A stretch of 59,663 bases of DNA from Myxococcales bacterium (GCA_003154095.1 PMCK01000061.1:1-59663), one strand, 5' to 3'; positions 23,307 through 48,658 are shown, numbered from the stretch's first letter. Notes: generated by a model from the sequence alone, not told the origin. Numbers and translations are program-made.

Positions 23307-26300
23307 GTGAGTGAGCCTAGGGATATCTTCATTAGTCATGCCGGCGAGGACGAGATTGTCGTGCGGACGCTAGCTGATGGTCTTGAACGCGAGGGATATA
23401 ATACCTGGTACTACGAACGAGATAGCGTGTTCGGTGAGGCGCATCTTATACAAACAATGCACGCCATCGAGCAGGCCAAGCTGATTTTGGTTGTGGCCTC
23501 GCCGAATTCCCTCCGCTCACATGAAGTGACTAGCGAACTTAAGGTGGCCAGCCGAAAAGGCAAACTCGTGGCCCCGCTGCTCCTCGGAGTCACTTGGGAT
23601 CAGGCGACGGCTAAAGAACTCTGGAGCGTCGTTTTCGGGGTTGCAAGCGCGCTCACCATTAATCCCGACCATGTTCTCGACATTCTGCCTCGAATGCTCA
23701 CCGGCCTCACGGCAATGGGTGTGGTTCCGAGTGGAGGGGCGGCCAGTGCCAAGTCGATATCGGTAGAATACCCGTTTCCTATCGCGGCGACTTATATACA
23801 GAAGCTCGGGCGTCCTTGGGGACCGGAGCAGTCCGTCCAGGCACACGAGGCAATAAGAGATATGGTCGAGGCAGCGGTCGCCTATCTCGCCGTCATCGCC
23901 ACCTGCCGGTATCGTAGGGAAATCCATTCCCCAGGACGTGAAGACCTCGCTGTTGAATCTGTCTTAGGCAATCTTTGCGAGCCCGGGCTCACTGACTGGG
24001 TAGTCTTACTTTTCAGCTCGCTCAAGGCACACGTGCTGGCCAGCGATCCGCTCGCAACTCGGATCTCCAAATTTCTTGATACACGACATGATTCCTCCGA
24101 CGCCGTCTCAGTAGCCGCTGTCAATCTCAAGAAGTGGATTGACCGAAACGCACCGCCTCCGAATTCGGTAGCCAACCGTGACTTCATCGATCTCTTGTCG
24201 AATTATGCTCGCGTACAGGAGGGATGGGGTGGGAGCGGAACACGATTGACTGGGCACGACGAGTGTCAGAACAGGGTCGATATTCTGCGTCCTGCAGTCG
24301 AGAGAATGCTACTCGATCTATCGTTCTTGACCGGCTACCCGCTCGTCTACGTTCAGGATGTGCAGCACATCTCGGACAGAATTTGGTCTCATCGGATCTA
24401 CGACGGCATGGGCCGGGATCTAGTTGTGAAGAACGAGCAGCTGCAGAGTCATAAGCCGCTTGAGCGATCGCACGTCTACCTGTGCCAACGCGGAGAAAAA
24501 TCACTACAGCCGTTGGTCGATCTCGAGCCCCTGCTGGTCCTCCAGGACTGTCCGACGTGCGGAGTTCCGAGCATGCTTCTTTCTGCAATGCGCAAGATTG
24601 GGCGCGCAGAGGGAGTCAGCCTCAATTGCCGACACAAGACTGAATGGGACGACAATCGTACACACGAACTGGCAACCTTCCTGTCGTTATCCGATTGGTG
24701 CTCCAGTTTTCTGCCCACTGAACACTTGCCGTACAAGGCGGCAATCGAAGAGGTAGTCTTCGACAACGGCCAGATCTCCACCGAAGAAAGGCAAAAGCTC
24801 GAGTTCCTCGCGAAGGCGCTGCGTGTTCCGTTGGAAGTGACCAAGCGATTGGAGGACCAGGCCCTCGCCGACTATCACCGCCAGCAGACTGAGTACAAGG
24901 CGGCAGTTGAAATGGTGATCTTCTTCGACGGCCAAATCTCTGCCGCGGAAAAGCAAAAGCTCGAGTCTCTCGCGAAGAGGTTGCGTGTTCCGCCGGAAGT
25001 GGCCAAGAGATTGGAGGAGCAGACCTTCGCCGCCTATCACCGCCAGCAGACCGAGTACAAGGCGGCAATCGAAACGGTGATCTTCGACAACGGCCAGGTG
25101 TCTACCGAGAAAAGGCAAGAGCTCGAGTCTCTCGCGAAGAGGTTGCGTGTTCCGCCGGAAGTGGCCAAGAGATTGGAGGATCAGGCCTTCGCCGATTATC
25201 AAGAGAAGCAGGCCGAAATTCAGCAGAGGGATGCCGAAGCTAGAGGAATAGAGAAGCCCGGTGCCCAATCCAGTGTCCAGGTGATACCGCCGGGCGTCGA
25301 TATCCCCCCCAAGACAACGCCTCACGAGGCTCCGACGCCACCGACCAAGCAATTTTTGCCCGTGTGGCAGGAAGGTCTCGAGTCCAAGCCTACGCATGTC
25401 GCCTTGTTTGCGGCGCCGCCAATAGCGCTCGCGGTAGATGAAGCAGGCGAAGTAACGGTGCATGGCCGCGACGGCAAGCTCGTCTTTCGCGACCGAGTGC
25501 ATGACCGCGCTTTCGGCGTGGCTGCCGCTGGCGCGCGCGTATTTGTGACGACCTGGTCTGGCGATATCTATTGCTTTGGTCCGCGCGAAGTCTTGTGGCA
25601 TCGCCACGTCGGAAGTCCGGTTTCTGCTATTCACGTCGCAACAGGGTCCCTCGGATTGCTGGCAGGCACCTGGGATGGGCGCGTCCTGTCACTCCGGTCA
25701 GAAGACGGATCGCAACAGTGGACAACCTCTTTTGAGGACGGTATCTCGGCACTAGCAGCAGCGACGGACGGCTCAGCTTGTTTCGTAGGTAGCTACGCGG
25801 GACACGTCGCTCGGCTTGGTCCGAATGGTCAGAAGGAATGGGTGCGCGACATGCGCGCCGGAGTAATGCAAGTCGCTATGACTGACGACGAAGGGGATAT
25901 GGTCGTAGCCACCCGCCACGGCGTACTCACGCAACTACAAGCCAAGACACAGGCGACGGTGTTAGAGCATTTCTTTGAGAGCGCCCTAGTCGACGTTGGA
26001 TTCTCCGGGAACCGGCGCAGAGTGTCGGTAGCGCTTCAATCGGGAAAGGTTCAGGTCTGCGATATCGACGGCGCCGTTCATGTCCGTACGCAGGAAAAGT
26101 TCGAGAATGTAAGTCAGACTGCTTTTTCGCCTTTGTCCTCGAGCGGGAGGTTTCCGTTCGTAGTCTCGCGCAGCAAAGGTCTAGCTTTCTTCGACGATCA
26201 GGCATCTGGCTGGAACATCGTGGTGGAACCCCCAGTCGCGTGTGCGTCCATTTCTACCGAAGGCAGGGCCGTGCTCGTCGCTCGCACCGATCACATCGAG

Positions 26301-26660
26301 TTACTCCGCCTTGCGGCCCCTGCGTTGACAACGAAGATTGTTCCCCACGACGCGCTTCGTAAGGGCCACTTCACCAGGCTCAATATCAAAGTCGACAACC
26401 AGGGAGAGCGGCCAGCCCGCGACATCAAGGTCGAGCTCTCGGGTCCAATGGAAGGGCGGACATTTACCGTGGACCAAGAGCTTCGCACCGGCGCAGGAGC
26501 TGTCTATGATAACCAGTCAGTGCAGCCGAAAGAAGATGGCGCGGTTCCGCTAAGGGTGCGTTTGACTTGCGTCGACGATCGAGGCATCGAACACGTTTTT
26601 GAGTCGGAACATGTTCTCGACGTGGGTGCGGCGTCGGCGGTGAAGCAGGAGGTGTCGTGA
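23307..26660 (+). CDS. TIR - helical region - 3x54-aa TerB/DjlA-N-like repeats - Pro linker - PQQ/WD-like beta-propeller - CARDB-like Ig domain
   Basis: AAGGAG 9 nt upstream of GTG. RDIFISHAGEDEIVVRTLADGLEREGYNTWYYERD...LILVVASPNSLRSHEVTSELKVA (TIR). Repeats YKAAIE.V.FDNGQIS.EE.QKLE.LAK.LRVP.EV.KRLE. Propeller blades such as LAGTWDGRVLSLRSEDGSQQW and FVGSYAGHVARLGPNGQKEW. C-terminus LNIKVDNQGERPARDIKVELSGP. Confidence 0.85.
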   Translation: MSEPRDIFISHAGEDEIVVRTLADGLEREGYNTWYYERDSVFGEAHLIQTMHAIEQAKLILVVASPNSLRSHEVTSELKVASRKGKLVAPLLLGVTWDQATAKELWSVVFGVASALTINPDHVLDILPRMLTGLTAMGVVPSGGAASAKSISVEYPFPIAATYIQKLGRPWGPEQSVQAHEAIRDMVEAAVAYLAVIATCRYRREIHSPGREDLAVESVLGNLCEPGLTDWVVLLFSSLKAHVLASDPLATRISKFLDTRHDSSDAVSVAAVNLKKWIDRNAPPPNSVANRDFIDLLSNYARVQEGWGGSGTRLTGHDECQNRVDILRPAVERMLLDLSFLTGYPLVYVQDVQHISDRIWSHRIYDGMGRDLVVKNEQLQSHKPLERSHVYLCQRGEKSLQPLVDLEPLLVLQDCPTCGVPSMLLSAMRKIGRAEGVSLNCRHKTEWDDNRTHELATFLSLSDWCSSFLPTEHLPYKAAIEEVVFDNGQISTEERQKLEFLAKALRVPLEVTKRLEDQALADYHRQQTEYKAAVEMVIFFDGQISAAEKQKLESLAKRLRVPPEVAKRLEEQTFAAYHRQQTEYKAAIETVIFDNGQVSTEKRQELESLAKRLRVPPEVAKRLEDQAFADYQEKQAEIQQRDAEARGIEKPGAQSSVQVIPPGVDIPPKTTPHEAPTPPTKQFLPVWQEGLESKPTHVALFAAPPIALAVDEAGEVTVHGRDGKLVFRDRVHDRAFGVAAAGARVFVTTWSGDIYCFGPREVLWHRHVGSPVSAIHVATGSLGLLAGTWDGRVLSLRSEDGSQQWTTSFEDGISALAAATDGSACFVGSYAGHVARLGPNGQKEWVRDMRAGVMQVAMTDDEGDMVVATRHGVLTQLQAKTQATVLEHFFESALVDVGFSGNRRRVSVALQSGKVQVCDIDGAVHVRTQEKFENVSQTAFSPLSSSGRFPFVVSRSKGLAFFDDQASGWNIVVEPPVACASISTEGRAVLVARTDHIELLRLAAPALTTKIVPHDALRKGHFTRLNIKVDNQGERPARDIKVELSGPMEGRTFTVDQELRTGAGAVYDNQSVQPKEDGAVPLRVRLTCVDDRGIEHVFESEHVLDVGAASAVKQEVS
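24732..25217 (+). repeat. Three tandem 162-nt coding repeats
   Basis: Units start at 24732, 24894 and 25056. Units 2 and 3 share an identical 59-nt block (ctcgagtctctcgcgaagaggttgcgtgttccgccggaagtggccaagagattggagga). Confidence 0.9.
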
Positions 26661-27820
26661 TGAGGTCTTGTGAGTCATGTGGTAAGAGCTTGAGACCGGA
26701 GCAATTCATTTGTGAATGCGGTGCAGCGGCAGGTGTTGCTCAGCCTGAAATAGGCAACTTCGGCGAAATCGACATGAAGGTGCCAAAACTCGATCTGGGC
26801 AAGGCAGAGTTGCGATCCCTCGATCTGTCCTTCGCGGGCGCGAAGGGCGGTTCTCTTCCGAGCTTCGACCTCAAGAGTATGGCGGACGCGAATATTGATC
26901 TCAGAACTCGGCAAGGGAGCCGCGGCCGGCCCTATAGGATAGAGTTCGCAATTGGCGGAGCCGAAGCAGACAGCGTCAGACTGTGTCGCCCGGCTGCCGT
27001 GGCGTGCCTGCCGAATCGTGATCTTCTGGTGCTCGACTTCAAAAACGAGGAGAGCGGCGTCAGAATTCAGCGGTTTGATGCCGACGGCGGTCTGCGAAAA
27101 GTCGTGACGCAGCAAGGAAAGGATAGCTCCGAAGGTTCCATCGCAGTACCTGCGGCGTTAGCCATTGACTTTCGGGAACACATTTTCGTTTCCGATATGG
27201 ACGGCGGCTGCGTTAAGGAGTTCGGTGCCGACGGTGCTTTCTTGAGTTCGCACGGTCGCGCCGGGACCGGCGAGGGAGAGTTAGATACACCGCGGGCCTT
27301 GGTCGTAGACGCGAAGGGAAACCTATACATTGCCGATTCTGGGAACAACCGGATTACTCGCTGGCGGGAATACAACCAAGATCTCGTGGTCGGCATCAAC
27401 CGGCTCGACGAGGCGTACGGTTGGCTCCAGGCGGGAGATGGTCCTGGCGAGTTCGACGATCCACAGGGGCTCGCGTTGGGATCCAGCGGCCACATTTTCG
27501 TTGCCGATACCAACAATCACCGTATACAGAAGCTCGATTCCCTCGGGCAATACGTATCGTCGTTCGGGTCGGAAGGGGAGGAGGCGGGAAAGCTCTCGTA
27601 CCCGAACCACGTTCGTCTTGGCCCCGGTGACGAGATCCTCGTTGCCGATCTTGGTGGCCGTCGTCTCCAGAGCTTCGACGATGACGGAAACTTCTCATAT
27701 GAGATCGCCCTGCCAGAAGACGCAGGTGCGCTGACCGACTTCGCGGTAGACTCACAGGGCCGCATCGTAATTGCTCTCCCGAGTCGTCACCTTGTCATCG
27801 CGATGGAGGTCTCTCGATGA
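26657..27820 (+). CDS. Zinc-ribbon + six-bladed NHL-repeat beta-propeller protein (cytoplasmic)
   Basis: GTG 26657 or ATG 26660 overlaps the upstream TGA. CESCGKSLRPEQFICECG. NHL blades LDTPRALVVDAKGNLYIADSGNNRITRW, FDDPQGLALGSSGHIFVADTNNHRIQKL and LSYPNHVRLGPGDEILVADLGGRRLQSF. No signal peptide. Confidence 0.85.
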   Translation: MMRSCESCGKSLRPEQFICECGAAAGVAQPEIGNFGEIDMKVPKLDLGKAELRSLDLSFAGAKGGSLPSFDLKSMADANIDLRTRQGSRGRPYRIEFAIGGAEADSVRLCRPAAVACLPNRDLLVLDFKNEESGVRIQRFDADGGLRKVVTQQGKDSSEGSIAVPAALAIDFREHIFVSDMDGGCVKEFGADGAFLSSHGRAGTGEGELDTPRALVVDAKGNLYIADSGNNRITRWREYNQDLVVGINRLDEAYGWLQAGDGPGEFDDPQGLALGSSGHIFVADTNNHRIQKLDSLGQYVSSFGSEGEEAGKLSYPNHVRLGPGDEILVADLGGRRLQSFDDDGNFSYEIALPEDAGALTDFAVDSQGRIVIALPSRHLVIAMEVSR

Positions 27821-30800
27821 CCATTGGCAGACTTTCGGATACGCGCCGATGGAGTGACGAGTCGGCGCAGGCGCCCGGTGAAACGCCGGTTCGCCGCTAC
27901 GAGCGCTTGGTTGAGAAGATCGACGGGATCATTGACGATCCCAATGCACGGATGCGTCTCGCCAACGAGATGTACTCGCTGGCCGTTGGAAACGACGCTC
28001 GTTCGCTCCCGCACTTGCGCCTCCAAGCCCTACTGCAAACAGTACGGCTCGATCCCTTTCGCCGCCAATTCCGCCTCGCGTTGGTGCGGGCGCAGCGCGA
28101 GCTTGGGCTCGTGAGCGAAGCGATGGCGGTACTTCAAAGTGTCAAGAACGACGGTTTCGCCCTGGACGATGAAGGAAATCTCGAACTAGGCCAAACTTTG
28201 CTGGAGTCAGGTAAGGTCAATGACGCAAGAGCCCATTTTAAGGACGTGCATGCCGGCAAGGCACGAGTTCAGGCCGAATTCGATCTAATTGAGTGCGATC
28301 TTCGCTCTGCTGGTACTGTCGATGAGTGGAAGAAAGTGCTCCGTTCGCTCAAAGATTTGAAGCTCCCCGACTTTGGGCCTGGCGACTCTCAAATCGTAGG
28401 GCTGTTCAGCGAGAAGTGCCTCAAGTTTGCCGTGGAGTGCGACGACCAGGCGTTGATCGACGAATTGGTACAGGTCGCCAAGGCTAAGCTCGATTCGAAT
28501 AGAGCCCCCGGTAGTACTCGGCACCCCGTCTACAGATTGTTTCTCAGTGTTGTGCGATTGCCCGAATCGGTCGAGTTCCCTGCGGGAGCTTTGGAGGGCT
28601 TGTTGCTCGCCCATCGCCTAATAAAGCGTACGCCGGTGACAGGCGAAGAGGAAGACCGCATCAAGGCAATGAAGGAGTGGCGGAATCTTATCACGACCAA
28701 AAAGTCGCGATGGTTCGGACTCAATGAAGCCTACTTGCACGTCATAGACGGTTGGGCGATGGATGTGTATCGCCGCAAGGAATTTCAGCTCGCGCAATCC
28801 CTGTGGAGCGAGGCGGAACGAGTCGCCCCGAGCAGCCCTCAAGTGCTCAAGAACCTGGCAATTGTCAGTACGCGCATGGCTGACGAATCCAACTTCGATT
28901 GGTACTGGAACCGTCTCACCCGTGTCTGGAATTTACAAGCAGAGCTTGCGCCGGAGGCTGATGGATACATGCAGGCACTTCAGGAGAAATGCCAGGCGTT
29001 TTCGGAAGGCGCTGAGAAGAAACTTGCGGGCGTTCGTGTGCCGGAGGACCGGTTAGAACTTGCGCTCATCTGGGCCAAAGAGGGGCTTTCATTCAGGGCG
29101 CTCCGGCAGTTGAGGTTTCGCAACGCTTTCCTGCGCTGCGGTGTTCTGACCGAAGACTTCGCCAACGAGACCGAGCGAGACACCTTGCTCGACATTGGTC
29201 ATAGGAGCGCGAGCCGCGCGCTGGAACTCGTCGCACACTGGCAACAGCTCGGTGGGCATTCCGAGCTCGCTCGCCATCGTCAAGCGCGTCTCGACGACGC
29301 ACTAAGTCTTGCCAAGACTCAAGGCTCACAGAAATACGTCGGTTACGACATTGACAAGGACGCCTTCTTGGCTCACCGAAAGGCGACCGTATGTCATTTC
29401 CTCGGGCTGCTGGGCTTGCTTCAGCAAATGAACGTCAATGTCGCTGATGCAGAGATCCGGCGAAAGATGGCCGTTGTCGCGCAGTGCGTTTGCAGCTTTC
29501 CACTTCGCCTTCTCAAGGCCGAGGTGCTGAAGTTGGTCCCGAATTTCACCGAGGAAACTCATCTCGGCCAGTTTGCCGAGGGCGTCGCGCTCGGGCCGTG
29601 GTTATCCCTCGGTCAGCAGTCTTTGCGCGCCGGCGACGCAAAAAAGGCTCTAGCCATTCTCGGAGAAGCACTCTCGATCGCTCCTGATTCGGCAGTTGTG
29701 CGGTTTCTATTGGCGCAGTGCCATGCCACGACAAAGAACTTTTCGCAGGCCTTCGAGGTTCTGGTCGAGGCGCGCAAGACCTGTGAAGACAAAGAACTTG
29801 GTCAGCAAATTGATCAATTTGCTGACCAAATGGACTTCGCTCGGGTCGATCAGGCGTTGGAAAAAGCGAAGAGCTGCCTACAGAAGAACGATTCCGTGGG
29901 TGCCGTCCGCGAATGTTCTGGCCTCCGCTCGACGTTTGGGAACCACGCATATCTCTTGTTCATGCTAGCAAGAGCTCAGGCGGCGAATCTCGACTTCAAC
30001 GACGCAAAGACCAGCCTGAAGGCGGCCCGAGCTGCGAGAGGTGAACGCAAAGAGGACGAGCTCCTTCAAGGCATCGAGTCATTTCTCGGAGATATCGAGA
30101 AGTCAGCGCCACTCATGGTCCTATCGAAGGCAGTCCCGCTGATGCAGGAGCAACACTGGGACGATGCGCTCAAGGTGCTAGTAAAGGGTCGGTGCCTCGA
30201 GCCGCCGGATCCGAGGGTCACGTATTATGAAGCCATATGCCTGGGGCGTTCTGGGACAACCGACCAGGCCGAGAGGGTTGCCGCAGAAGCTCTTGAGCAG
30301 TGCAAGACGCTTCAAAGGGCCCACTTAAACGGTCGCGAGACCACCTCCTCACTTAGCCTGAAAGAGACTGGAGCGCTGGCAAAGGAGATTGAAGCTTCAA
30401 TTCCTCAGATCCCGCTCATGGCAATCGCGCAAGAATTGGGCGACGCCCGACAGGCAATGAGCAAGGAACGCTGGAGCGAAGCGCTCGGACATCTGGCACA
30501 GGCGCTTCGAAAGCGACCGAAGGCGGTGCCGGCTCTATTTCTGAAGGCCGTTTGCTGTTTCCGCATGGAGGATTGGGATCAAGCCGAGAGAATCGCCAGA
30601 GAAGCACAGCCATTCTGCGGGCCCCACGACGAAGACGAGCGCAAGCAGCTCGGACTTATCATTGAGCAAGTTCCTCTGGCCCGCATCGCTAAGGACATGG
30701 AGGCGATCAACCAGTGCCTAAGAAAGGAGCGATGGGAAGCCGCGTTCGTGCACATTGATGACGTTTTGCGCAAAGATCCCACGCAGCCGGCGTGCCTCTT

Positions 30801-31521: not shown

Positions 31522-31528
31522 CGGTGCC

Positions 31529-38930: not shown

Positions 38931-38940
38931 GGAGAACCTC

Positions 38941-39153: not shown

Positions 39154-39155
39154 CG

Positions 39156-41387
39156 ATGCGACGAACGGCTCCGTTTCGTTTTTTGTTGTTGTTGTTTGTG
39201 ACGGCACTGGCAAGTTGTCATACGAAACCTGTCGCAGGTCCCCCAGTACCCAATAAGCCCGCGCCGGAGATCCATCGCAGTCTCCCGGCCGATTTCGTTG
39301 TTTGCATAGACGATTCGGGGAGCATCAGCCCGACGGAACAGGCTCTGGTGCGTGAAACCACGATGTTGCTCGCGGATCTCGCGGAGGAAGGCGATCAGGT
39401 TTCTGCAATAGCCTTCGGCACCGGAGCGCGAAAGGTCGCCGCCCAGCTGATCCGGACGGATGATGATCGACGCGCGTTCAAGGACGCCGTGCGCCAGACG
39501 CTCACATTCAAAGAACGCTCGTCTGACATCCGCGCCGGCCTCAAGCTTCTCGCTGAGGATAACTCGCCGTGGTTCCGCCCCAGCGGTGAGTCAATCCGTG
39601 TAGCCATCGTTCTGAGTGACGGAAAGCTCGAACCAGCCAATCGTGATGCCCGAGGCGCGCGCGATGAGATGGTAAAGCTTCTGCAGGGTCGCTTGTCCAA
39701 AGTGGATCTCTACAGCATCGTGCTCGGTAACCGAACCAGTCAGGAACCGATCCCGGGCCTGGAACCGATCACCGGAAACCAGCTCATGAAGGACGTGATC
39801 GGGCGATCGGATGATCGCTATTTCCAGGCGAGCCGACTCGATCAGCTTCTTGAAGACACAATGCTCATTCTTGAACGTGCCAAGGGAAGCGCGTCAATCG
39901 ATGAGCTGCATTCCACCAAGCTTCGCATTGATCGGAGCGTGGATTCGATGATGCTTGTCCTTCGTAAGCGATCGACGGACGGTTCCAGTCTGTGCAATTC
40001 GCTCGACATTCGTTTGAGAATGCCCGGAATCCAGGAACCTCTGAATTCGCGATCGACGCAATCCGGCGTCTACTGGTCTACCGATTACGAGTATTTTGAT
40101 CTGATCCGAATCCGTAAACCAAATGAGGGGATTTGGGAAGTCGCGCTCGCCAACGGCAAGAAGCCCGAGGTCCTGAGCAAGGTCGTTTCACCGTTGGACC
40201 TGCAATTTGCGGCGCGTAGCGTGTACTACCTCAACGAGCAAAGCGAGCTTGACGCTTGGATCTTCGACAAGTCGACCGGGTCGATTTCACAGCCAAAGGA
40301 AGGGCCTGTGTTTCGCATCCGGGCCGAGCATGGCGGCGGCCCGCAGGCAGGCGTATCGTCGCAACAACCACTCAACTTCAATTCTGAGACAGGCCACTAC
40401 ACCCTGGAGTTGCCGGGCGCGCTCGGTAAGAATCTGGGGATGCACCATTTCCGACTCGCCGCCGAAAGGCTTGAGTCGGTAGGTAGCACGAAGGCTGACC
40501 CGTGGTTCCTTCGACGGACAGGGCCAATCACCGTCAGCTTAGCGGAGCCATTCGTGAATTGGCGTGTAACACCAGAGCTTGCGACACGAGTACCCTTTCT
40601 GACTCGAATGTTGGCGGCCTGGCGGGCACCTGGCAGCTTGCCATTTGCCGATAAACTTTGGTGGCTTCCGTTTGGCGGCTCGCTACCCTCAGCGTCGTTC
40701 GGCGCCGATTGGGCGAGCACCGCGAAACTTGCGCCTGTATTCGAGATTCCTCCCACCGTGACGATTGAGCTGTCGAAGTTGGACGCTAGCAAGGGCAGCT
40801 TCCAGCCCCTCCTCACGGAAGCGTTGCCTAGTCCGACTGCCGAGCGTCGATACGACTTCACGACTAGCCTGTCCGAATCGGGTGCGTATCGTTATCGTTA
40901 CGTTCTTAATGGCACGACCGCGGATGGTCCGTTCAGCATAGTCAGTCCTTCCTATTCTTTTCGCGTTCGAACCGGCTGGGAGTACTGGATTCTTCTGTTA
41001 CTGGCGTTATTGGTGGTCGTCGATGTGGTGGGCAAGCGTACGGCAAAAATCAGCGGTTTCCTTCAAAGCACCGCTCCGCACCCTTGGATGACCGACTTGA
41101 CTTCACGTAGCTACGATAGCGCCTCAGCGGTCGCCGAAGCGCCGCACTTGGCCGGAGCACAAATCGTACTCAAGGCGACTCGCATGCTTTTCTTCTTTCG
41201 CAAGCGCATTCTTCTGACGGCACGGACCGGCACGCTCGAAATTGGAAGGGAAGTCATGGACGAGAATGGCGCAATGGTAGCCGAAATGATTGATGCACCT
41301 GGGCCGGGCAAAACTATTGCCTTGGAACCAGGAGAATATACAATTCGCGCAGGCAGTGTGCTCTTGACACTCAGCGCGTCAGTGTGA
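39156..41387 (+). CDS. vWA-domain lipoprotein with C-terminal TM anchor and ~110-aa cytoplasmic tail
   Basis: MRRTAPFRFLLLLFVTALASC (lipobox). MIDAS FVVCIDDSGSISPTE, then AIAFGTGA and VAIVLSDGKLEP. Late TM WEYWILLLLALLVVVDVVG. Confidence 0.85.
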   Translation: MRRTAPFRFLLLLFVTALASCHTKPVAGPPVPNKPAPEIHRSLPADFVVCIDDSGSISPTEQALVRETTMLLADLAEEGDQVSAIAFGTGARKVAAQLIRTDDDRRAFKDAVRQTLTFKERSSDIRAGLKLLAEDNSPWFRPSGESIRVAIVLSDGKLEPANRDARGARDEMVKLLQGRLSKVDLYSIVLGNRTSQEPIPGLEPITGNQLMKDVIGRSDDRYFQASRLDQLLEDTMLILERAKGSASIDELHSTKLRIDRSVDSMMLVLRKRSTDGSSLCNSLDIRLRMPGIQEPLNSRSTQSGVYWSTDYEYFDLIRIRKPNEGIWEVALANGKKPEVLSKVVSPLDLQFAARSVYYLNEQSELDAWIFDKSTGSISQPKEGPVFRIRAEHGGGPQAGVSSQQPLNFNSETGHYTLELPGALGKNLGMHHFRLAAERLESVGSTKADPWFLRRTGPITVSLAEPFVNWRVTPELATRVPFLTRMLAAWRAPGSLPFADKLWWLPFGGSLPSASFGADWASTAKLAPVFEIPPTVTIELSKLDASKGSFQPLLTEALPSPTAERRYDFTTSLSESGAYRYRYVLNGTTADGPFSIVSPSYSFRVRTGWEYWILLLLALLVVVDVVGKRTAKISGFLQSTAPHPWMTDLTSRSYDSASAVAEAPHLAGAQIVLKATRMLFFFRKRILLTARTGTLEIGREVMDENGAMVAEMIDAPGPGKTIALEPGEYTIRAGSVLLTLSASV

Positions 41388-44300
41388 AGTTCAACAACTG
41401 CAAGCGTGTGGGAAATTCGATGACCAAACCGATTTTTAGAAAGATAATGCTCGTAGGCCTTGGGGGCTCCGGGCAAAAGATCGTCTTAAACCTCAAGCGC
41501 CTACTAATCGATCTATACGGCGTGGTCCCTCCGTCGATCAAGATGCTGTGTCTGGATACTGACGTGCCCATGGAGGGTGCCGCATCAAATGTGCGCGAAT
41601 CGCGACATGGTTTTGATCCTCAAGAATTCTTGCACATCAAGGTGGAGCAGCCCGCCGTGTTTCTTCGCGAGTCGCCTGCCGTGGACCGCTGGTTCGTCAA
41701 ACCAGTCCCAATCGGAGCTATCACGAGTGGCGCTGGAGCCATCCGGCAGAACGGTCGTCTAGCTTTCTTCCACAATCTCCACGAAATCGCGCAGCGCATC
41801 GACACGATGAAGATTGCCCTGGGCGACGCGGCCCTTCCGCGACTGATGAATTCAGCCCGTACGGAATTGGGCGCCACCATGGACTTTGATCTCTCGCCGA
41901 AAGAGATGGAGGTCTACGTGTGTGGTTCTCTCGCTGGAGGCACAGGTAGCGGAACCTTTCTCGACATGGGGATCCTTTTGCGCGCCGAACTGCCTGGCGC
42001 GCTGATTCATGGGTTCTTCCTGCTCGACTGGCTGTACCGTCGCAACGCCTTTGCAAATCGCGTAGGAGGAAACGTATACGCCGCGTTGGCCGAACTCGAC
42101 AATCTGCAGTCGATTGTCTATGGATCTGAGCGATTCATCCCGTACGAAGTCGACTACGGAAAGAGGCACGTGAGTGTTACCCAGTCCCCCTACACACTCT
42201 TTCATGTCATTGACGGACGCAACGAGAACGGCGAAAACATCAATGATGTCAACCAGGTCACGGAAATCGTGGCGCGCGCAATATTCTTGTCCGTGGGATC
42301 AATGGGTCCGGCAGTAGCGAGTGTAGTCGACAACCTAATCAATCATATCAACGTCACTGGGCCCAAACTGTGGCAGGGCAAGTACGCACGCTACTCGAGC
42401 CTCGGGGTCAGTTCGCTAGTGTACCCGGCTCCAGAAAAGCATCGCCGGATTGCCGCCGAACAAGCGCTACGCCTGTGTGACGAGGCAATCGCCGAACTGG
42501 AAGGGGTTGCCGTAAAAGGGGATGACGGGACGAGCGCGGAAATCTCCGCGGATATCAAGAAGGTCCTCACACAGGCGGGCTACCCCGGTAATCCATTGGG
42601 CAATGCGGTCAGGCCCCGTTTGCGTACGTTCGTGTACCCCAAACTGACGTCGTCCGATCTAGCCGACGGCGTGTTTCCCACAAACGTGACGAACAAGCAA
42701 CGTGGCATCGAATCGCAAATCCAAAACGCGGTCGAAAATGTGTTCGCTGCGGTTGGTACTAACGTCGTGCAGACCGCTCACGGGGCGTTCCGCGACAGGA
42801 TCGCACAACTCGACGCGAACGCTAATGTGAGTGCTGCGTACCGAAAACAGTGGGTCGAGCAGGCCGTGGCAGAGCTGCAGGACCTGCATCAGGCGGCGGC
42901 AGCAGCCGAGCAAGAGGCCCAAACATCTCTGTCGGCGGCTAGGGCCAGGGCGAGCGAGCATCTTGCAACAGCACAAAAGCTACCGATGACGTGGTACGGA
43001 GGGCGGCGAAAGGGGGCCGCCGAGAAGTGGCGCGTGGCGGTAGGTCAGGTGTTGACGGCGTTTCGCGACGGGCTTGTAGCTGCTTACGAACGCGGCGTCT
43101 TGAAGTCCGGTCCGGAGTCGCAGACCAAGGGGCTGATTGATCTGCTGACGGAGCAAGCGCAGGGCTCAGTGCCCAAGGCTTCGCAGATCGTCGAGCTTCT
43201 AAGGACCGCACGGGCGGACCTCGATGGGCAATTGCGCATTGCTCGGCGCGAGGTGGACGCAATCCAGTCGAACGTAACAAACGTCGTCATCGGACGTGAT
43301 GGGATCGTGGTTCCCGGCGAATTTATTGAACAGCTCCGACCGTCGGGGGAGATCACGAGTGCCCCGGGCGACAGGAGATCGACCCTGATCAATTTGAGCC
43401 TACAGCGGTTTAAGGAGGAATCCAAGGTCTATGTCGTCGACGACTACCTCAAGAGGTCCGAAGGCAGCGCTGAAAAACTCGCGGGATTATTCAGTCACTA
43501 TGCTAAACAACGGCTCGCGCCGTTGGCATTCGTGGATATCCATGCTGCCATGAAGTTTCACGCGGACGTGCAGGGGGTAGAATTGAACGACTTCTTGCGC
43601 GAGCAGTTCAGTCACATGGTGAGGTTAGCGTCTCCCCTATGGACATACACAAAGGCGATGCTGGACGCGACCCGCAGGCCTCACTACGATCGAGTCGTCA
43701 ACATTGGAGTCCATGATGGACAGGCGAAATCTAGCTATGAACAGATAATCAAAGCTTCCATGGCACGGTTTGGCATCGGCGTCGAACCCGCATTTACAGA
43801 AGTGGGCGACCCGTATCGAATTTGGTTCCTCAATTACGCCGCTGCCTTGCCCGCATATATGTTAGAGACCGTCGAAGAGAATCGCTCCGAGTACGAGACT
43901 GAGATACTGCCGCCGTATCACTTAGATCGCTACTTCGAAACTGCAGTGCCCGATCTATATCCACACGATGACCGCGATAACATTACGCTGCGGATTCTTG
44001 GAATGGCGATTATTCCGGGGGTCGACATCATCTGTGACGAAAAGCTGAGCAAGGGTCACAAGTATACCTGCTCTGATCCTGAAATACAAAAACGCAACGG
44101 GAACGAGCGGCTCGTGTGGCTTGATTTTCGAACGATGTACGACGACGTCCGTACGAATACGGAGCTGCTCGACGGTTTGATCACCGCCCTGCGGCAACGT
44201 ATGAATTCCTTATCGCGCGACGACGCGAAGCCCGCAATTCAAGGTCATATCGAGCGCGTTCGGGCGAAACTCGAGCATCGCGATTTTTCGAAACTGGTGA

Positions 44301-44404
44301 GCGCGCGGTTGACCTATCAAGAAATCGCAGCGCTGGAGTCCTTCCTGTCGATGGGCCGCGGAGGCTTCCGCATGGAACTGGAACGATACATCAGCGGCAA
44401 CTAA
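41384..44404 (+). CDS. Giant (about 1000 aa) tubulin/FtsZ-superfamily GTPase-like protein (Tubulin_2-like)
   Basis: GTG 41384 overlaps the vWA stop (GTGA); alternative ATG at 41420. IMLVGLGGSGQKIV (T1-like) and VCGSLAGGTGSGTFLDMGILLR (tubulin signature GGTGSG). Confidence 0.8.
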   Translation: MKFNNCKRVGNSMTKPIFRKIMLVGLGGSGQKIVLNLKRLLIDLYGVVPPSIKMLCLDTDVPMEGAASNVRESRHGFDPQEFLHIKVEQPAVFLRESPAVDRWFVKPVPIGAITSGAGAIRQNGRLAFFHNLHEIAQRIDTMKIALGDAALPRLMNSARTELGATMDFDLSPKEMEVYVCGSLAGGTGSGTFLDMGILLRAELPGALIHGFFLLDWLYRRNAFANRVGGNVYAALAELDNLQSIVYGSERFIPYEVDYGKRHVSVTQSPYTLFHVIDGRNENGENINDVNQVTEIVARAIFLSVGSMGPAVASVVDNLINHINVTGPKLWQGKYARYSSLGVSSLVYPAPEKHRRIAAEQALRLCDEAIAELEGVAVKGDDGTSAEISADIKKVLTQAGYPGNPLGNAVRPRLRTFVYPKLTSSDLADGVFPTNVTNKQRGIESQIQNAVENVFAAVGTNVVQTAHGAFRDRIAQLDANANVSAAYRKQWVEQAVAELQDLHQAAAAAEQEAQTSLSAARARASEHLATAQKLPMTWYGGRRKGAAEKWRVAVGQVLTAFRDGLVAAYERGVLKSGPESQTKGLIDLLTEQAQGSVPKASQIVELLRTARADLDGQLRIARREVDAIQSNVTNVVIGRDGIVVPGEFIEQLRPSGEITSAPGDRRSTLINLSLQRFKEESKVYVVDDYLKRSEGSAEKLAGLFSHYAKQRLAPLAFVDIHAAMKFHADVQGVELNDFLREQFSHMVRLASPLWTYTKAMLDATRRPHYDRVVNIGVHDGQAKSSYEQIIKASMARFGIGVEPAFTEVGDPYRIWFLNYAAALPAYMLETVEENRSEYETEILPPYHLDRYFETAVPDLYPHDDRDNITLRILGMAIIPGVDIICDEKLSKGHKYTCSDPEIQKRNGNERLVWLDFRTMYDDVRTNTELLDGLITALRQRMNSLSRDDAKPAIQGHIERVRAKLEHRDFSKLVSARLTYQEIAALESFLSMGRGGFRMELERYISGN

Positions 44405-44479
44405 CGCAGTCGCCATCCACGCTCTTCAGACAGCACCAACCACGTCGGTCCCTACTGGCAACATGCATCGGGGTGTCAG

Positions 44480-45919
44480 ATGAACATAGAAAAGCGTATC
44501 GCGGAATTCGAGAACATACTAGAAGAGCGCGTGCTGTGTGATCCAAGCAAAGCAGCTATAGACAAACACAATGCACTCGCAAAGGCCTTCGAACAATGGC
44601 AGCACGAGGAGACTAGGCGCATCGAGGCTGACAAAGCAGTGCTCAAGACTCGTACAGATCAGCTCGATGAGTTCGACAGCCAAATCGATACGCTAAGGAA
44701 GGGTCTGCCTACTGAACCATCCACGGGCTCGGTACCTTCGGCAAATGATGCAGCCGTAAATGAAATAAATAGTCGGATTCGCCAACGCAATACGCTTGTC
44801 GACGACATTCATTTGTCGCAGCAAGCATACAACAAGCGAATTGTTGAATTCAACGCCGAGCAATCTCGGCGCGGGCGCGAGATCGACGAGCAGCGAGATA
44901 GGCTTAAACTGGAGGTCGATGCGCATAACCGGTGGCAGCAGCAAGATGGTATTTCTACACTGAGCCGCAACATCAACGATCTCTATGGACAACTCCACCG
45001 CGAGGCGCGCACGAGCCCAGTCGAGGCCATCACCCTGGAACCTTTCATCCGCCGACTGCGTCGAATGCGAAACGAGCTTGGTCTCAAGGCCCAACAAGAA
45101 GAGGCCAGCAAGGAGACGGGGCTCCTGGTCGTTCGATGCTCGTTAGGCGCAGACGAAGATTCCAAAGCGCCCCGCGAAGAGGCTTTTATGTGCGTCGACA
45201 ATGCATCGTCCCTGACGATATTAACGAGGGAAATGGTTGACGTTCTTGGGATCGGCAGCTTTGTCGGGGAAGAGGTCGAACTCACACTGGTCAACAGAAT
45301 CAAACTGCGCGCACCCCAAGTACTTCTGCCGAGCGCGTCAGTGGACGGCTGCGAAGCCAAGTACGTGAAGGCCGTGATATTGGACGAAATGTCGCCCGGA
45401 ATAAGTGGGATTCTCGGCCTAAGTTTTCTGTCACGCTTCGATTTCGTCGTTGAAAAACACAAGCCGCAGAGGCTCACGTTGAAAGGGCGCACACACGACG
45501 ACGATGATGCGTTCGATGTTTTCATCTGCCACAAAAGCGAGGATGCGGAATACGGCAGGGCCGTCTATGATCTCCTGGTCAAGGCCGACTATAGAGTCTT
45601 TTTCAGTGCGGCCGCGAGGGGTAGCGGAGAATTCCAGCAGGCTATCGATAAAGCGCTCGAAACGTCGACTTATATGGTTGTCGTCACCTCGTCGGAGAGT
45701 CACGTGCTTAAGCCCTGGGTCCAGACGGAATGGAGAATGTTCGACGGCATGATTCGGGAACGGAGAGACGGCGGAAAGAAGCGCCGTAGTATCGTGCCCG
45801 TCCTCTGTGGAAGCATGGAACGGAGCAGTCTTCCGATGGCGCTTCGAAGATTTGAAATGGTGGAATTCTCTCAGGACGGATGGGGAACAAAGTTACTGAA
45901 CCTACTGCGTCGTGGCTGA
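44480..45919 (+). CDS. Coiled-coil - retropepsin-like (clan AA) domain with DNA in place of D(T/S)G - C-terminal TIR
   Basis: The N-terminal ~200 aa are coiled-coil. FMCVDNASSLTILTREMVDVLGI ... ISGILGLSFLSRFDFVVE (retropepsin-like). FDVFICHKSEDAEYGRAVYDLLVKADYRVFFS...MVVVTSSESHVLKPWVQTEWRMF (TIR). Confidence 0.75.
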   Translation: MNIEKRIAEFENILEERVLCDPSKAAIDKHNALAKAFEQWQHEETRRIEADKAVLKTRTDQLDEFDSQIDTLRKGLPTEPSTGSVPSANDAAVNEINSRIRQRNTLVDDIHLSQQAYNKRIVEFNAEQSRRGREIDEQRDRLKLEVDAHNRWQQQDGISTLSRNINDLYGQLHREARTSPVEAITLEPFIRRLRRMRNELGLKAQQEEASKETGLLVVRCSLGADEDSKAPREEAFMCVDNASSLTILTREMVDVLGIGSFVGEEVELTLVNRIKLRAPQVLLPSASVDGCEAKYVKAVILDEMSPGISGILGLSFLSRFDFVVEKHKPQRLTLKGRTHDDDDAFDVFICHKSEDAEYGRAVYDLLVKADYRVFFSAAARGSGEFQQAIDKALETSTYMVVVTSSESHVLKPWVQTEWRMFDGMIRERRDGGKKRRSIVPVLCGSMERSSLPMALRRFEMVEFSQDGWGTKLLNLLRRG

Positions 45920-45934
45920 AAGAGGTAGCGGATC

Positions 45935-48658
45935 ATGAATCAGATCTCAAGCGACTTGCAAGCGCTGATGAACGAGTTTTCGAATGAGCAACCGGGGTAC
46001 TGTAGTTACAAGAATTTCCTGGAAAGCGTGCTACAAAGGGCGTGCATGCGCTTCGACCCGCTTGCCATCGTGCAAGCGCGAGTCAAAAAAGCGAGGTCCT
46101 TCGCCGAGAAGTGTGTCCGCAAAAAGTACGAGGAGCCGTTCAAAAGAATGACCGACCTCTGCGGCGCGAGGGTCATCGTTCGATCCAAACACACGGTGCC
46201 CCTGGTAGGGCGATTCATCCGCGACAATTTCCTTGTCGACGAGGCCAATAGCGCCGACATGGCTGGACGACTGGGAGCCGCTGAATTCGGATACGGCTCT
46301 CTGCACCTTGTCGTTCAGGTTCCCGAAGACATCGAAAGCCCCTCTCAAGCCAAGATAAGGCGCAATGGCCTCCCTTTGACGGGCCAGGAGAGGCAATGGC
46401 TTAAGGAGCTCAATCAAGGCCACCCTAGAAAAGCGGAGATCCAAGTACGCACACTCTTGCAGCACGTCTGGGCCGACGTCGTGCACGACCGCATTTACAA
46501 AACCAAGCTAAGAATACCTCCACGCTATGCACGTGTGGCGTCACGTCTTGCAGCCCTGCTCGAGGAGGCTGACAACAGTTTGGGCTCGTTGAGCGAATCG
46601 ATTGACGCTTACCAGGTGGACTACGGCGCCCACATGACGAAAAACCAGCTAGCTGATGAATTCAGTACGCTTCAGCTGCTTGCTAGAATGGCTGAGTCGA
46701 ACTTCAACTCGACGCCAACACCTAGTCGAGCCGAGGTTGACTCGGGGCCACGCGTGCCGTCAATCCAAGAAGTGGACTCGGCCGAAATAGCGACTCTGCA
46801 AGATCGAGGGGAGCTAGCCTTGCGGCTGGCGAAGGTAGCGAAATCAGCAGGCGATTGGGACAGTGTTATCGAAGTATCGGAACCGTTCCTCGCTCGCGCC
46901 GAGATCCTAGAGCGCGACGAATTGAGGCTCGAACATGGCTACGCCCTGTGCAAAAGACACGAGGAACATCCACTTGGTCCCGAATTCAAGCGGGGTTGCG
47001 ACGAACTACGCAAAGTCAAAGATGAGCCCGCGCTTGAGCGCACGGAACTCAAGGCGCGAGCTCTGGCCGCGCTCGCCTGGTCCGAACGCAAGCGTGCGCA
47101 GCCCGCTTCGCTTCGAGAAGCGCGCAATCTTAACCGTGAAGCCCACGCTTGTTCGCCGGGAAATCCATATATCCTCAAGGAATTCCTCGAATGCGAGCTG
47201 CGTTTGACTCAGAGGGTCGAGTCTATCGATCTGCTTGGACCAGAAATAGTGCGTGCAGTCGAAAAATGTGCCGAGCATGCGGAAGTAGGTATCGAACTCC
47301 CTTATGCCCACTTTACAAGTGGAAAGTTAAATGTGCTCGCCAAGCGAACGCAAGAGGGAATGCTTGCTTACGTGCGAGGAATTGCAAGTAGCAGCACTTC
47401 CTATGCTCTCGAGGAAGAGCTGGCATCCGTCGAAGCACTCGAAGACAGTCTTGGTAGCGACCTCAGGCAGCTGGAACAGGTTCGTCTTCTATTGCTCCTA
47501 GGCATTGCCGCCAAGGAGCACGTCGGCCTCAAAAGCAGGATTAATGTCAGGGAAAAGCTGGAGGCGACGTTTGATTGTGTCTTCGATCGCGTGACAAGAC
47601 TCAGAGGGTCAGAACTGCTTCCCAGCTTGACGCCGCTAACGCCGCCCATCATTGCCGTTGTAGGGGGAGCCGCCGCGCGGTTCGAGATCGAGATCGAGCC
47701 ATATCGCGAAATGCTCCGACACGCGTGCTTTCAATTCAAAGGGACAGTCTTTTCGGGTGGCACCATGCAGGGCATCCCCGGACACGTCGGAGAGATTGCA
47801 AAGGACGCGGCACAAGGGGGAAAGCTACAAGCATTTGCATACATTCCGCGCCTGCTACCCGAGGATGCCACACCACACGACGGCTATCGCGTGTTCGTCA
47901 TCGAGGGAACGGAAGGTTTCACGTATCGCGAACCCATGCAGAGTTGGGCCCATGTGCTGTTGTCCGGAGCGAGTCCCAAGGACGTTCGCATACTTGGCAT
48001 TGGAGGCGGACCAATAGCAAAATTTGAATTCCACCTGGGACTTGCCCTGGGAGCCACGGTCGGCATTCTGGCCAACAGCGGTCGCGCTAGTGAGGAGCTT
48101 CTCAAGGAAGAACCCTGGTGGCCAGCCGGCGCGGTACTCGCTCTACCCAATGATCGGAATGTTGTGCGAGCGTTCCTCCATTCGGGTGAACTGCCGTCCC
48201 TCAACACGTCGCCAGTAAGCACCGCCTACCTACCAGCAGCAAAAAAGGTGCACGATTTCTTTGTGCAGGACTCGCAGGCCCAGCAGGAGCCCGCTAGCTG
48301 GGAATCCCTTTCGCCCGATTTTCAATTGTCCAACATTCATCAGGCTATTTATGCCGAGAAGATACTCCGTGGCTGCGGATTCACGGTACACAAGCGGGTG
48401 GCAGACAGCAGCCCCGTCCTATCATTCGAGACCAATGAGATCGAGAGGATGGCGGCCATGGAACATGGGCGCTGGGTCTTCGAACGCCTACGTCAGGGTT
48501 GGCGTTACGGAGCGGTCCGTGACAACACCAAGAAAGTGCACCCACTGCTAGTTGGTTGGGAGCAACTCCCCCTCGTGGAGCAAGAGAAGGATCGTAACGC
48601 AGTGCGCCGCTTTCCAGAAGTGCTACGGGAAGCTGGGTTCGAAATTAGTAGGGTATGA
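45935..48658 (+). CDS. RelA/SpoT-homologue synthetase domain - helical/TPR region - SLOG (LOG/TRPM-N-like) domain - RyR domain
   Basis: RVKKARSFAEKCVRKK, MTDLCGARVIVRS and AEIQVRTLLQHVWADVVHDRIYK (RSH synthetase). IIAVVGGAA...VFSGGTMQGIPGHVGE...ILGIGGGPIAKFEFHLGLALGATVGILANSGRAS (SLOG). IERMAAMEHGRWVFERLRQGWRYG...KVHPLLVGWEQLPLVEQEKDRNAVRRFPEVLREAGFEI (RyR). Confidence 0.85.
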   Translation: MNQISSDLQALMNEFSNEQPGYCSYKNFLESVLQRACMRFDPLAIVQARVKKARSFAEKCVRKKYEEPFKRMTDLCGARVIVRSKHTVPLVGRFIRDNFLVDEANSADMAGRLGAAEFGYGSLHLVVQVPEDIESPSQAKIRRNGLPLTGQERQWLKELNQGHPRKAEIQVRTLLQHVWADVVHDRIYKTKLRIPPRYARVASRLAALLEEADNSLGSLSESIDAYQVDYGAHMTKNQLADEFSTLQLLARMAESNFNSTPTPSRAEVDSGPRVPSIQEVDSAEIATLQDRGELALRLAKVAKSAGDWDSVIEVSEPFLARAEILERDELRLEHGYALCKRHEEHPLGPEFKRGCDELRKVKDEPALERTELKARALAALAWSERKRAQPASLREARNLNREAHACSPGNPYILKEFLECELRLTQRVESIDLLGPEIVRAVEKCAEHAEVGIELPYAHFTSGKLNVLAKRTQEGMLAYVRGIASSSTSYALEEELASVEALEDSLGSDLRQLEQVRLLLLLGIAAKEHVGLKSRINVREKLEATFDCVFDRVTRLRGSELLPSLTPLTPPIIAVVGGAAARFEIEIEPYREMLRHACFQFKGTVFSGGTMQGIPGHVGEIAKDAAQGGKLQAFAYIPRLLPEDATPHDGYRVFVIEGTEGFTYREPMQSWAHVLLSGASPKDVRILGIGGGPIAKFEFHLGLALGATVGILANSGRASEELLKEEPWWPAGAVLALPNDRNVVRAFLHSGELPSLNTSPVSTAYLPAAKKVHDFFVQDSQAQQEPASWESLSPDFQLSNIHQAIYAEKILRGCGFTVHKRVADSSPVLSFETNEIERMAAMEHGRWVFERLRQGWRYGAVRDNTKKVHPLLVGWEQLPLVEQEKDRNAVRRFPEVLREAGFEISRV

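Follow-up and report, generated by a model that had tools for sequence, protein, structure and literature searches.

A thirteen-gene cluster in a Myxococcales contig

We analysed a stretch of 59,663 nucleotides (nt) from a Myxococcales bacterium (GCA_003154095.1, PMCK01000061.1:1-59663), referred to below as the window, which carries a cluster of 13 open reading frames (ORFs) on its plus strand between positions 23307 and 48658. A first-pass annotation, made from the sequence alone, had described this cluster as one operon that joins TIR proteins, a private chaperone set, a tubulin-like GTPase and a protein with RelA/SpoT homologue (RSH), SLOG and RyR domains. Our ORF scan and translations found the 13 ORFs at the coordinates given there, with the same successive junctions of -4, -4, 7, 25, 24, 16, 17, 10, 2, -4, 75 and 15 nt. 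The cluster spans 25-31 kb. We refer to ORF1 to ORF9, which include an Hsp70 set, as module A, and to ORF10 and ORF11, a vWA lipoprotein and a tubulin-like protein, as module B. The genes are listed below with two downstream genes that bear on their interpretation (aa, amino acids; TM, transmembrane; MIDAS, metal-ion-dependent adhesion site; SAS, small alarmone synthetase).

ORF1, 23307..26660, plus strand: N-terminal TIR domain, uncharacterised middle, three 54-aa tandem repeats and C-terminal PQQ/WD-like beta-propeller
ORF2, 26657..27820, plus strand: Cys-rich N-terminus and NHL beta-propeller (Pfam NHL, E=9e-27), with orthologues in 4/4 module-A loci
ORF3, 27817..31521, plus strand: 1234-aa TPR scaffold (Pfam TPR_19/TPR_16)
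ORF4, 31529..31939, plus strand: J-like domain without HPD motif
ORF5, 31965..32657, plus strand: divergent GrpE (Pfam GrpE, E=1e-15), far under every NCBIfam GrpE cut-off
ORF6, 32682..34622, plus strand: specialised Hsp70, neither DnaK nor HscA (Pfam HSP70, E=3e-119)
ORF7, 34639..36291, plus strand: pseudokinase with TPR
ORF8, 36309..38930, plus strand: polytopic membrane protein with 7 predicted TM segments (hydropathy scan) and a cytoplasmic TPR/helical region (TPR_2)
ORF9, 38941..39153, plus strand: conserved 70-aa protein with no assigned role, predicted by independent gene callers
ORF10, 39156..41387, plus strand: predicted exported vWA lipoprotein (Pfam VWA; lipobox LASC; MIDAS DDSGS)
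ORF11, 41384..44404, plus strand: predicted FtsZl1-family tubulin-like GTPase that also has a long helical region and, C-terminally, an alpha/beta domain
ORF12, 44480..45919, plus strand: helical N-terminal region, retropepsin-like domain and TIR domain (Pfam TIR_2, E=2e-16; gag-asp_proteas/Asp_protease_2)
ORF13, 45935..48658, plus strand: SAS-type RSH domain, TPR, SLOG domain (LSDAT, TRPM2 MHR1/2-like) and RyR Repeat12-like domain
RHS/YD-repeat protein, 48666..53642, minus strand: 1658 aa, convergent with ORF13 (Pfam RHS_repeat, E=2e-35)
Hydrolase, 53729..54190, plus strand: 153-aa predicted Aph1-type HD-domain (p)ppApp hydrolase (PDB 7SMG, '(p)ppApp hydrolase', E=1e-44)

Pfam profiles confirmed most of the domain inventory that had been proposed from motifs: the two TIR domains, the PQQ and NHL propellers, three TPR proteins, GrpE, Hsp70, vWA, RelA/SpoT and RyR. 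The inventory had missed the retropepsin-like domain of ORF12 and the TPR stretch of ORF13. It had also described ORF8 as an 8-TM TPR protein; a membrane TPR protein it is, with one predicted TM segment fewer.

Window positions 31420-54404 reappear in an independent ENA metagenome assembly (L001), where 3 of 22,985 nt are mismatched. This excludes an assembly artefact at the point where the Hsp70 part meets the vWA/tubulin part, and the 13-gene cluster is confirmed as a real observation. Two of its limits can be refined. First, ORF11 probably starts at ATG 41420 rather than at 41384, since gene callers and homologue N-termini concur on that position, and the ORF10/ORF11 junction would then be +32 instead of -4. 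Second, the right-hand end originally placed at 48658 is too short, because the Aph1-type hydrolase gene at 53729-54190 pairs with ORF13; we take this gene to be a predicted part of the system. On the left, ORF1 has a GTG start with a good Shine-Dalgarno sequence (AAGGAG) upstream.

Scans of the window for sigma-70 promoters and intrinsic terminators gave matches that were mostly no more frequent than in shuffled sequence, with no convincing operon promoter. Promoter-like sites in 36300-49500 numbered 8, against 4.1 ± 2.0 expected from shuffles, and the terminator scan returned no terminator-like site between the genes of the cluster. The presence of sigma-54 activator genes beside relatives led us to search for sigma-54 promoters too: matches in the window were at chance level, with none upstream of ORF1.

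Two separately conserved modules

Module A recurs as a unit. Its gene order (propeller, NHL, large TPR, J-like, GrpE, Hsp70, TPR or pseudokinase, ~880-aa and ~70-aa protein) is common to L086, L087, L088 and L173/174, that is, to 4/4 members of the Hsp70 subfamily that were looked up on long contigs. ORF1 matches Pfam TIR_2 (E=4e-15) as well as PQQ_2/Beta-prop, and its translation reads SxEVTSE at the counterpart of the catalytic-Glu motif. Its orthologues are found in L086, L087 and L088; L173/174, from Ktedonobacterales, has a stand-alone CHAT protease gene in place of the TIR domain, followed by a propeller without TIR. Orthologues of ORF3 (1046-1260 aa) and of ORF9 (67-82 aa, after the ORF8 orthologue) are present in L086, L087, L088 and L173. 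ORF7 matches PADLOC kinase-type models over residues 14-284, and its L088 orthologue matches Pkinase. Since the HRD Asp and the DFG motif are missing in 4/4 orthologues, ORF7 is indeed the pseudokinase that had been proposed. The module is rare: among 1.84 billion proteins, just 25 representatives of the ORF8 family reach E<=1e-30.

The chaperones of module A differ from housekeeping DnaK-DnaJ-GrpE. ORF6 scores 422 bits against an NCBIfam DnaK cut-off of 648 and falls in a separate subfamily, which comprises ~35 clusters at 55-75% identity, while DnaKs reach <=47%; GrpE too lies below its cut-offs, and the J-like protein has no HPD. The window copy of ORF4 gives no Pfam match, its orthologues match DnaJ (L087, and faintly L086), and HPD is replaced in 4/4 aligned orthologues. 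As a consequence, the Hsp70 cycle, previously described as complete and dedicated, has its GrpE, Hsp70 and J-like members but is not canonically complete. Hsp70 fusions occur among ORF6 subfamily members or relatives, to TIR_2 (P0134, and P0176, which also carries TPR) and to CHAT (P0144, P0159). A metagenome scan with the single Hsp70 protein found nothing; repeated with the Hsp70 alignment it was dominated by ordinary DnaKs at 34-43% identity and returned zero subfamily members.

Some side observations concern the same genes. The subfamily C-terminus (window 34560-34622) ends in a conserved QDxLLEV-type tail in which Q638 and D639 are invariant. It is reminiscent of the eukaryotic EEVD tail, which is bound by TPR co-chaperones, and three TPR proteins are encoded nearby. 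The tandem repeat of ORF1 (24731-25201) consists of 2.9 copies of 162 bp with 84% matches and shows weak DUF533/TerB-like and PADLOC PDC-S48 matches. In L087, which lies on a 5.35-Mb contig, the orthologues of ORF1 (1350-4556) and ORF8 (13611-16302) are split across several frames, which suggests a decaying copy or sequencing frameshifts. Finally, a 233-240-aa HExxH protein follows the ORF9 orthologue in L087 (16530-17252) and L088 (16610-17311), at the position that the vWA-tubulin pair occupies in the window.

Module B is a pair of its own. ORF10 carries the lipobox and MIDAS listed above and is predicted to have a single C-terminal TM helix (604-622) followed by a ~120-aa cytoplasmic tail, in agreement with the earlier description of an exported vWA domain with a cytoplasmic tail. 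The tubulin/FtsZ-like assignment of the ~1000-aa ORF11 was likewise borne out: it matches Pfam Tubulin_2 (E=7.5e-50), GGTGSG, a loop of the GGGTG[ST]G type, is invariant in the homologue alignment, and Foldseek searches with its AlphaFold2 (AF2) model (mean predicted local distance difference test score, pLDDT, 85.9) gave only FtsZ, CetZ or tubulin among the top 50 PDB hits. The close subfamily comprises ~70 clusters at 35-47% identity over full length, in hosts that include Methyloprofundus, Accumulibacter, Desulfosudis, Acidobacteriota and Eisenbacteria. In 13/13 subfamily loci the gene immediately upstream of the tubulin-like one encodes an ORF10-like vWA protein. These synteny counts leave out the cyanobacterial and Thermoanaerobaculia Tubulin_2 relatives (22-35% identity), for which phmmer found no other gene in common with the window. 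A plasmid collection yielded only distant FtsZl1 relatives, which lie on megaplasmids.

In 10 loci a family of ~800-aa proteins is encoded directly downstream of the FtsZl1 gene (for example L002 12965-15445, L004 13361-15751 and L005 12964-15387). It has no Pfam match, and over its last ~130 residues it shows homology to the C-terminal domain of FtsZl1 (hhalign 94%). The possibility that this third gene corresponds to one of the window ORFs was rejected, as phmmer gave no match. A sigma-54-dependent activator gene (L002 6102-7394) stands directly upstream of one such vWA-tubulin operon; the window was found to contain none.

FtsZl1 operons have been described before: Makarova and Koonin (Biol Direct 2010) defined the family, noted among its partners vWA, kinase, GTPase and OmpA proteins, and suggested a role in membrane remodelling. 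Sequence methods could not then demonstrate the two-domain FtsZ core of the family. Alignments of the ORF11 model with complete FtsZ/CetZ chains cover ~340-380 columns and suggest that it has the entire two-domain core. Module B resembles these operons in the architecture of ORF11 (~1000 aa, with an FtsZ-like domain at the N-terminus, a helical region and a C-terminal domain) and in the preceding vWA gene, with intact MIDAS and secretion/TM signals; a kinase-like gene is also nearby. On the other hand, of the frequent though not obligatory partners the locus has just a pseudokinase, encoded in module A; searches for a GTPase or OmpA gave nothing. Moreover, the association of module B with RSH-SLOG-RyR, AspProtease-TIR, DUF4062-NACHT and RHS proteins points to conflict and not to membrane remodelling.

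That original proposal, together with the membrane proteins ORF8 and ORF10 and the fact that a specialised Hsp70/GrpE pair serves Myxococcus motility, would favour a cytoskeletal, membrane-remodelling or cell-surface machine in which the TIR and RSH enzymes regulate physiology. We find this very improbable. The distribution is patchy and rare, and the swapping of CHAT for TIR, the TIR/CHAT fusions and the neighbouring NACHT, DUF4062, RHS, integrase and transposase genes indicate conflict. No exopolysaccharide (EPS), pilus or division genes lie near the cluster in the window, which contains no housekeeping genes. The analogy drawn earlier with GrpS-SglK of Myxococcus xanthus proved weak as well. 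GrpS-SglK is a dedicated, co-transcribed GrpE/Hsp70 pair distinct from DnaK, and to that extent similar, but its operon consists of two genes, the J partner being encoded at another place, it controls EPS and type IV pilus motility, it has none of the twelve other gene families in common with this locus, and ORF6 falls in a subfamily of its own.

The joint presence of modules A and B raises the question of whether they form one machine. The cluster had been read as a single multi-component system, and in its strongest form this would be an indivisible machine of 13 components, with assembly at the membrane under the joint control of Hsp70 and the tubulin-like GTPase, which would also gate the TIR and RSH enzymes. 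The layout speaks for it: all genes are on one strand with gaps of <=75 nt, the junctions across ORF8-ORF9-ORF10 measure 10 and 2 nt, no terminator-like site separates the genes, and the independent assembly reproduces the arrangement. Nevertheless, no vWA or tubulin-like gene was found in the 4 other module-A loci (0/4), and no Hsp70 or GrpE gene within 10 kb in the 13 related vWA-tubulin loci (0/13). Homologues do form colinear operons elsewhere, yet the two modules never stand together in the 4 + 13 related loci, and of the lineages sampled it is only that of the window which joins them. Furthermore, the HExxH protein replaces the vWA-tubulin pair in L087 and L088, and the usual third gene of module B is gone from the window. 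This demonstrates that the cluster is a composite of separately conserved parts, and we regard an indivisible 13-part machine as unlikely.

Kaur, Burroughs, Iyer and Aravind (eLife 2020) predicted conflict systems centred on GAP1-N2 DO-GTPases that act near the membrane; of the concepts in print these come nearest. Their themes include tubulin with extracellular vWA, HSP70+GrpE(+DnaJ/TPR), and kinases; according to that work the themes do not overlap and occur mainly in Firmicutes and Actinobacteria. The earlier statement that no known system contains Hsp70/GrpE or a tubulin-like GTPase thus overlooks both this work and that of 2010. The present locus has the tubulin+vWA and the HSP70+GrpE themes, and differs in that a single operon holds both, along with effectors (TIR and RSH) not described for DO-GTPase systems. 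Membership of that group was rejected, as the DO-GTPase/FNIII core is absent from the 13 proteins: none (0/13) contains a Walker A motif ([AG]xxxxGK[ST]), which places the locus outside the 2020 type, and there was no GTPase Pfam or FN3 match. For GAP1 no model was searched; every ORF can otherwise be assigned, either to a different family or through its module-A orthologues.

ORF13, its partners and the direction of signalling

ORF13 matches Pfam RelA_SpoT and RyR, and LSDAT_prok weakly (E=0.003). The SLOG assignment, already made in the first-pass annotation, is strengthened by structure and by many full-length homologues for which the precomputed Pfam annotation includes LSDAT_prok. A profile of 45 homologues recovered RyR Repeat12 (E~1e-31) and RelP/RelQ (E~1e-20) from the PDB. 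With the AF2 model (pLDDT 85.8; predicted TM-score, pTM, 0.80), Foldseek matched the SAS proteins RelQ/RelP (TM-score ~0.8 on target), the MHR1/2 region (SLOG) of human TRPM2, which binds ADP-ribose (ADPR), RyR Repeat12 and a TPR solenoid. By eye the synthetase motifs RVKxxxSFxEK, DLCGARV, GYGSLH, EIQVRT and HDRIYK are intact, and K51, K59, D74, G77, R79, Y120, H124, E168, Q170 and R172 are invariant across the 45 homologues. In the RyR domain, H844 and D886 are invariant in the family. With at least 276 clusters, mostly of ~850 aa and with the same architecture, the ORF13 family is far larger than module A or B. In the loci examined, its members usually have as neighbours a TIR or DUF4062-STAND gene and a NUDIX or Aph1-like hydrolase.

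This family also links the two modules. ORF13-like genes are present in 9/13 module-B loci and beside module A in L086; L088 has a RyR-STAND protein instead. Orthologues of ORF12 adjoin the vWA-tubulin pair in L004, L010 and the P0006 contig, and their TIR catalytic Glu (PWVxxEW motif) is conserved. As a separate observation, the vWA-tubulin locus of the P0006 contig encodes a reverse transcriptase (RT)-RyR fusion, a stand-alone Asp protease, an AspProtease-TIR protein, a RelA_SpoT-TPR-S-LSDAT protein and an HD_4 hydrolase.

A hydrolase accompanies the synthetase, although its type varies: NUDIX in L010, L012, L014, L086, L169 and L172, Aph1-like in the window and L005, and HD_4 in the P0006 contig. 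In L005 the Aph1-like homologue (E=6e-33; the 151-153-aa HD protein type shared with the window) abuts the RSH gene. The window protein keeps D24, R119, K133 and Y134 of Aph1, and does not keep R96 and D116; D24 and R119 are residues shown to confer (p)ppApp specificity. Because the partner is of the Aph1 type, (p)ppApp is probably the product of the RSH domain, (p)ppGpp or a tRNA modification being the remaining alternatives. ORF13 resembles toxSAS enzymes and Tas1-Aph1 (also Apk2 and FaRel-type proteins) in its SAS-type synthetase domain with intact catalytic motifs. It differs from these in having its synthetase joined to TPR, SLOG and RyR instead of secretion or MuF domains, and in that the hydrolase is often NUDIX in relatives and the window genes are 5 kb apart. 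Owing to the fusion to these sensor domains, ORF13 looks ligand-gated.

A parallel in organization is Thoeris. In Thoeris of type I, ThsB, a TIR protein, is paired with ThsA, a SIR2-SLOG protein whose SLOG domain binds the TIR product 3' cyclic ADPR (3'cADPR). Similarly, the TIR proteins of this locus, ORF1 and ORF12, both with a catalytic Glu, adjoin an effector in which a SLOG/LSDAT domain of nucleotide-binding type is fused to a toxic enzymatic domain, here a SAS-type RSH. Minimal contexts of ORF13 relatives, taken from two members that were looked up, have the same two-part logic, with a single TIR or DUF4062-STAND gene beside the effector. The first (L169-171) reads sigma-54 activator (L169 2307-3992), TIR (345 aa), uncharacterised 726-aa protein, NUDIX and RSH-RyR; the second (L172) reads sigma-54 activator (1233-2957), DUF4062-STAND-WD40, NUDIX and RSH-LSDAT-RyR. 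The differences are also clear. PADLOC models for ThsB gave weak matches only (E 3e-4 to 3e-3) and those for ThsA none, the effector is an RSH alarmone synthetase with RyR and a hydrolase partner, and large chaperone and tubulin front ends are attached. The main text of a 2025 Thoeris survey (types V-XI) mentions no RSH, RyR, Hsp70, tubulin or vWA partner, and our literature search found no description of RSH-SLOG-RyR proteins, of the nine-gene Hsp70 module or of the whole architecture. The locus resembles an anti-invader system of a Thoeris-like, undescribed kind more than it does a housekeeping machine.

We propose, with a probability of roughly 0.6, that it is a composite anti-invader locus of the abortive-infection type, built on signalling from TIR to nucleotide, its function being deduced throughout from genes and predicted structures. 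Under this modular reading, two separately conserved front ends would be attached to a widespread core of TIR, SLOG-RyR/RSH and hydrolase. The role in conflict, as opposed to housekeeping, agrees with the first-pass annotation and is supported by genomic context and by architecture. Indeed, the swapping of TIR and CHAT effectors and the fusions of Hsp70 to TIR or CHAT are typical of conflict systems.

A different view of the same genes is that two or three unrelated defence systems stand head to tail without cross-talk, ORF13 serving one of them or acting as a toxSAS-like toxin with an Aph1-like antitoxin. The modules are found separately, the window is a dense conflict island, and pairs of RSH and hydrolase are known as toxin-antitoxin-like units. 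However, both module types independently accompany the RSH-SLOG-RyR family or a RyR protein elsewhere, and the SLOG and RyR domains imply control by a diffusible nucleotide, which the adjacent TIR proteins can supply. We hold this view to be unlikely.

The direction of the signal can also be questioned. Many bacterial TIR proteins are NADase effectors. ORF13 could then be the sensor and the maker of an alarmone-type messenger, the TIR proteins would deplete NAD+, and the RyR domain would be a cADPR glycosidase that limits self-damage. Proteins with RyR domains bind or hydrolyse 2'/3'cADPR through H75, W78, H100 and D117 (numbering of RyDEP, gp78 of phage DyoEdafos), and all four align with identical residues in the RyR domain of ORF13, including the H75/D117 catalytic dyad. 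RyDEP, the founding enzyme with this domain, is a glycosidase; most tested homologues bind without cleaving despite their high sequence conservation. Since sponge-type and glycosidase-type RyDEPs are so alike, sequence alone cannot tell binding from cleavage. Against such an inverted wiring, the SLOG domains of Thoeris receive TIR products, most tested RyDEP homologues bind only, and partners that alternate between NUDIX and Aph1-like are in keeping with the detoxification of what the RSH makes. We consider it quite improbable.

A candidate TIR-to-alarmone pathway and its setting

Returning to the TIR-to-nucleotide reading, we suggest the following sequence of events. The TIR domains of ORF1 and ORF12 would convert NAD+ into a signal derived from ADP-ribose. 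This signal would be bound by the SLOG domain of ORF13 (TRPM2-MHR1/2-like), by its RyR Repeat12-like domain, or by both, and binding would activate the N-terminal SAS domain. The latter would pyrophosphorylate adenine (probably) or guanine nucleotides, so that ATP is drained and growth halts. The Aph1-type hydrolase, or NUDIX in relatives, would clear leaky product and thereby set a threshold or allow a reset. Modules A and B would be two front ends for sensing and assembly, each deciding when the TIR enzymes fire. In module A, an ATP-driven switch made of Hsp70, GrpE and the J-like protein, together with the scaffolds and the membrane anchor, may restrain or release the TIR-propeller protein ORF1. 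In module B, the cytoplasmic tail of ORF10 may couple envelope events to GTP-dependent assembly of FtsZl1, which is a possible platform for oligomerization-dependent TIR activation.

Put in its most specific form, this would be a so far undescribed immune pathway in which NAD-derived TIR messengers switch on a (p)ppApp synthetase through SLOG/RyR, with the Hsp70-GrpE-J-like cycle and the vWA-coupled tubulin-like polymer as interchangeable licensing platforms. We advance this form tentatively, as a conjecture less probable than the composite reading. If true, it would be a bacterial counterpart of chaperone-licensed immunity by TIR-type nucleotide-binding leucine-rich repeat (NLR) proteins and of cytoskeleton-templated immune assemblies, and it would link TIR/cADPR with RSH/alarmone signalling.

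Several observations weigh against the composite anti-invader reading or its details. The TIR proteins might act last, as NADase effectors, with the RSH generating the signal, and the RyR domain may degrade the signal instead of sensing it. How Hsp70 would be driven is unclear, given a J-like protein without HPD. In Ktedonobacterales, module A comes with CHAT, and neither TIR nor RSH is found within 10 kb, so the module has no intrinsic tie to TIR signalling. Both modules are joined in one lineage alone, and the join could be an accident of packing. Module B of the window is missing the ~800-aa third gene of 10 relatives. The protease motif of ORF12 is degenerate (VDNASS, against VDSGAT/VDTGAS in orthologues). 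The Aph1-like gene is 5 kb from ORF13 with the convergent RHS gene in between, and the window contains no NUDIX gene. Finally, a single transcript is predicted from the layout of the cluster, the promoter and terminator scans being uninformative.

Should the reading hold, RSH-TPR-SLOG-RyR proteins would constitute a new and widespread class of Thoeris-like effectors, in which a signal of the ADPR type leads to alarmone synthesis and ATP depletion. It would give a cellular role to host-encoded RyR domains, since binding or cleavage of cADPR signals has so far, and only of late, been demonstrated for phage versions. It would also make regulators of immune effectors out of FtsZl1/vWA proteins and private Hsp70/GrpE sets, two long-standing puzzles. 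Only in the operon of the window do the two front ends occur together with the effector set, which makes it convenient for genetic dissection.

PADLOC returned no system-level match, as had been expected for the operon, and its domain-level matches were to TIR, kinase and RelA/SpoT models only. ORF4, ORF8, ORF9, ORF10 and ORF11 had no named-family match in PADLOC, NCBIfam or PHROGs. According to profile searches, the remainder of the window forms a conflict island. The neighbours belonging to it are:

4-3945: WD40 giant protein
4799-7945: DUF4062-NACHT-TPR protein
11822-13702: TIR-Kelch protein
16296-18771: two ABC-3C CTD10 proteins, one with DUF2326
20160-21266: PglZ-domain ORF

Two further genes were noted towards the right-hand end:

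55530-56690, minus strand: radical SAM protein
56759-58462, minus strand: 567-aa ORF with a weak terminase-small-subunit match (E=0.006)

The flanks of relatives are of a similar kind, with integrases and transposases (L002) and DUF4062-NACHT proteins. RHS proteins recur near the vWA-tubulin pair in L005, L010, L011, L012 and L014; the RHS gene of L011 comes directly after the tubulin-like gene. The RHS protein at 48666-53642 is a possible accessory or alternative effector.

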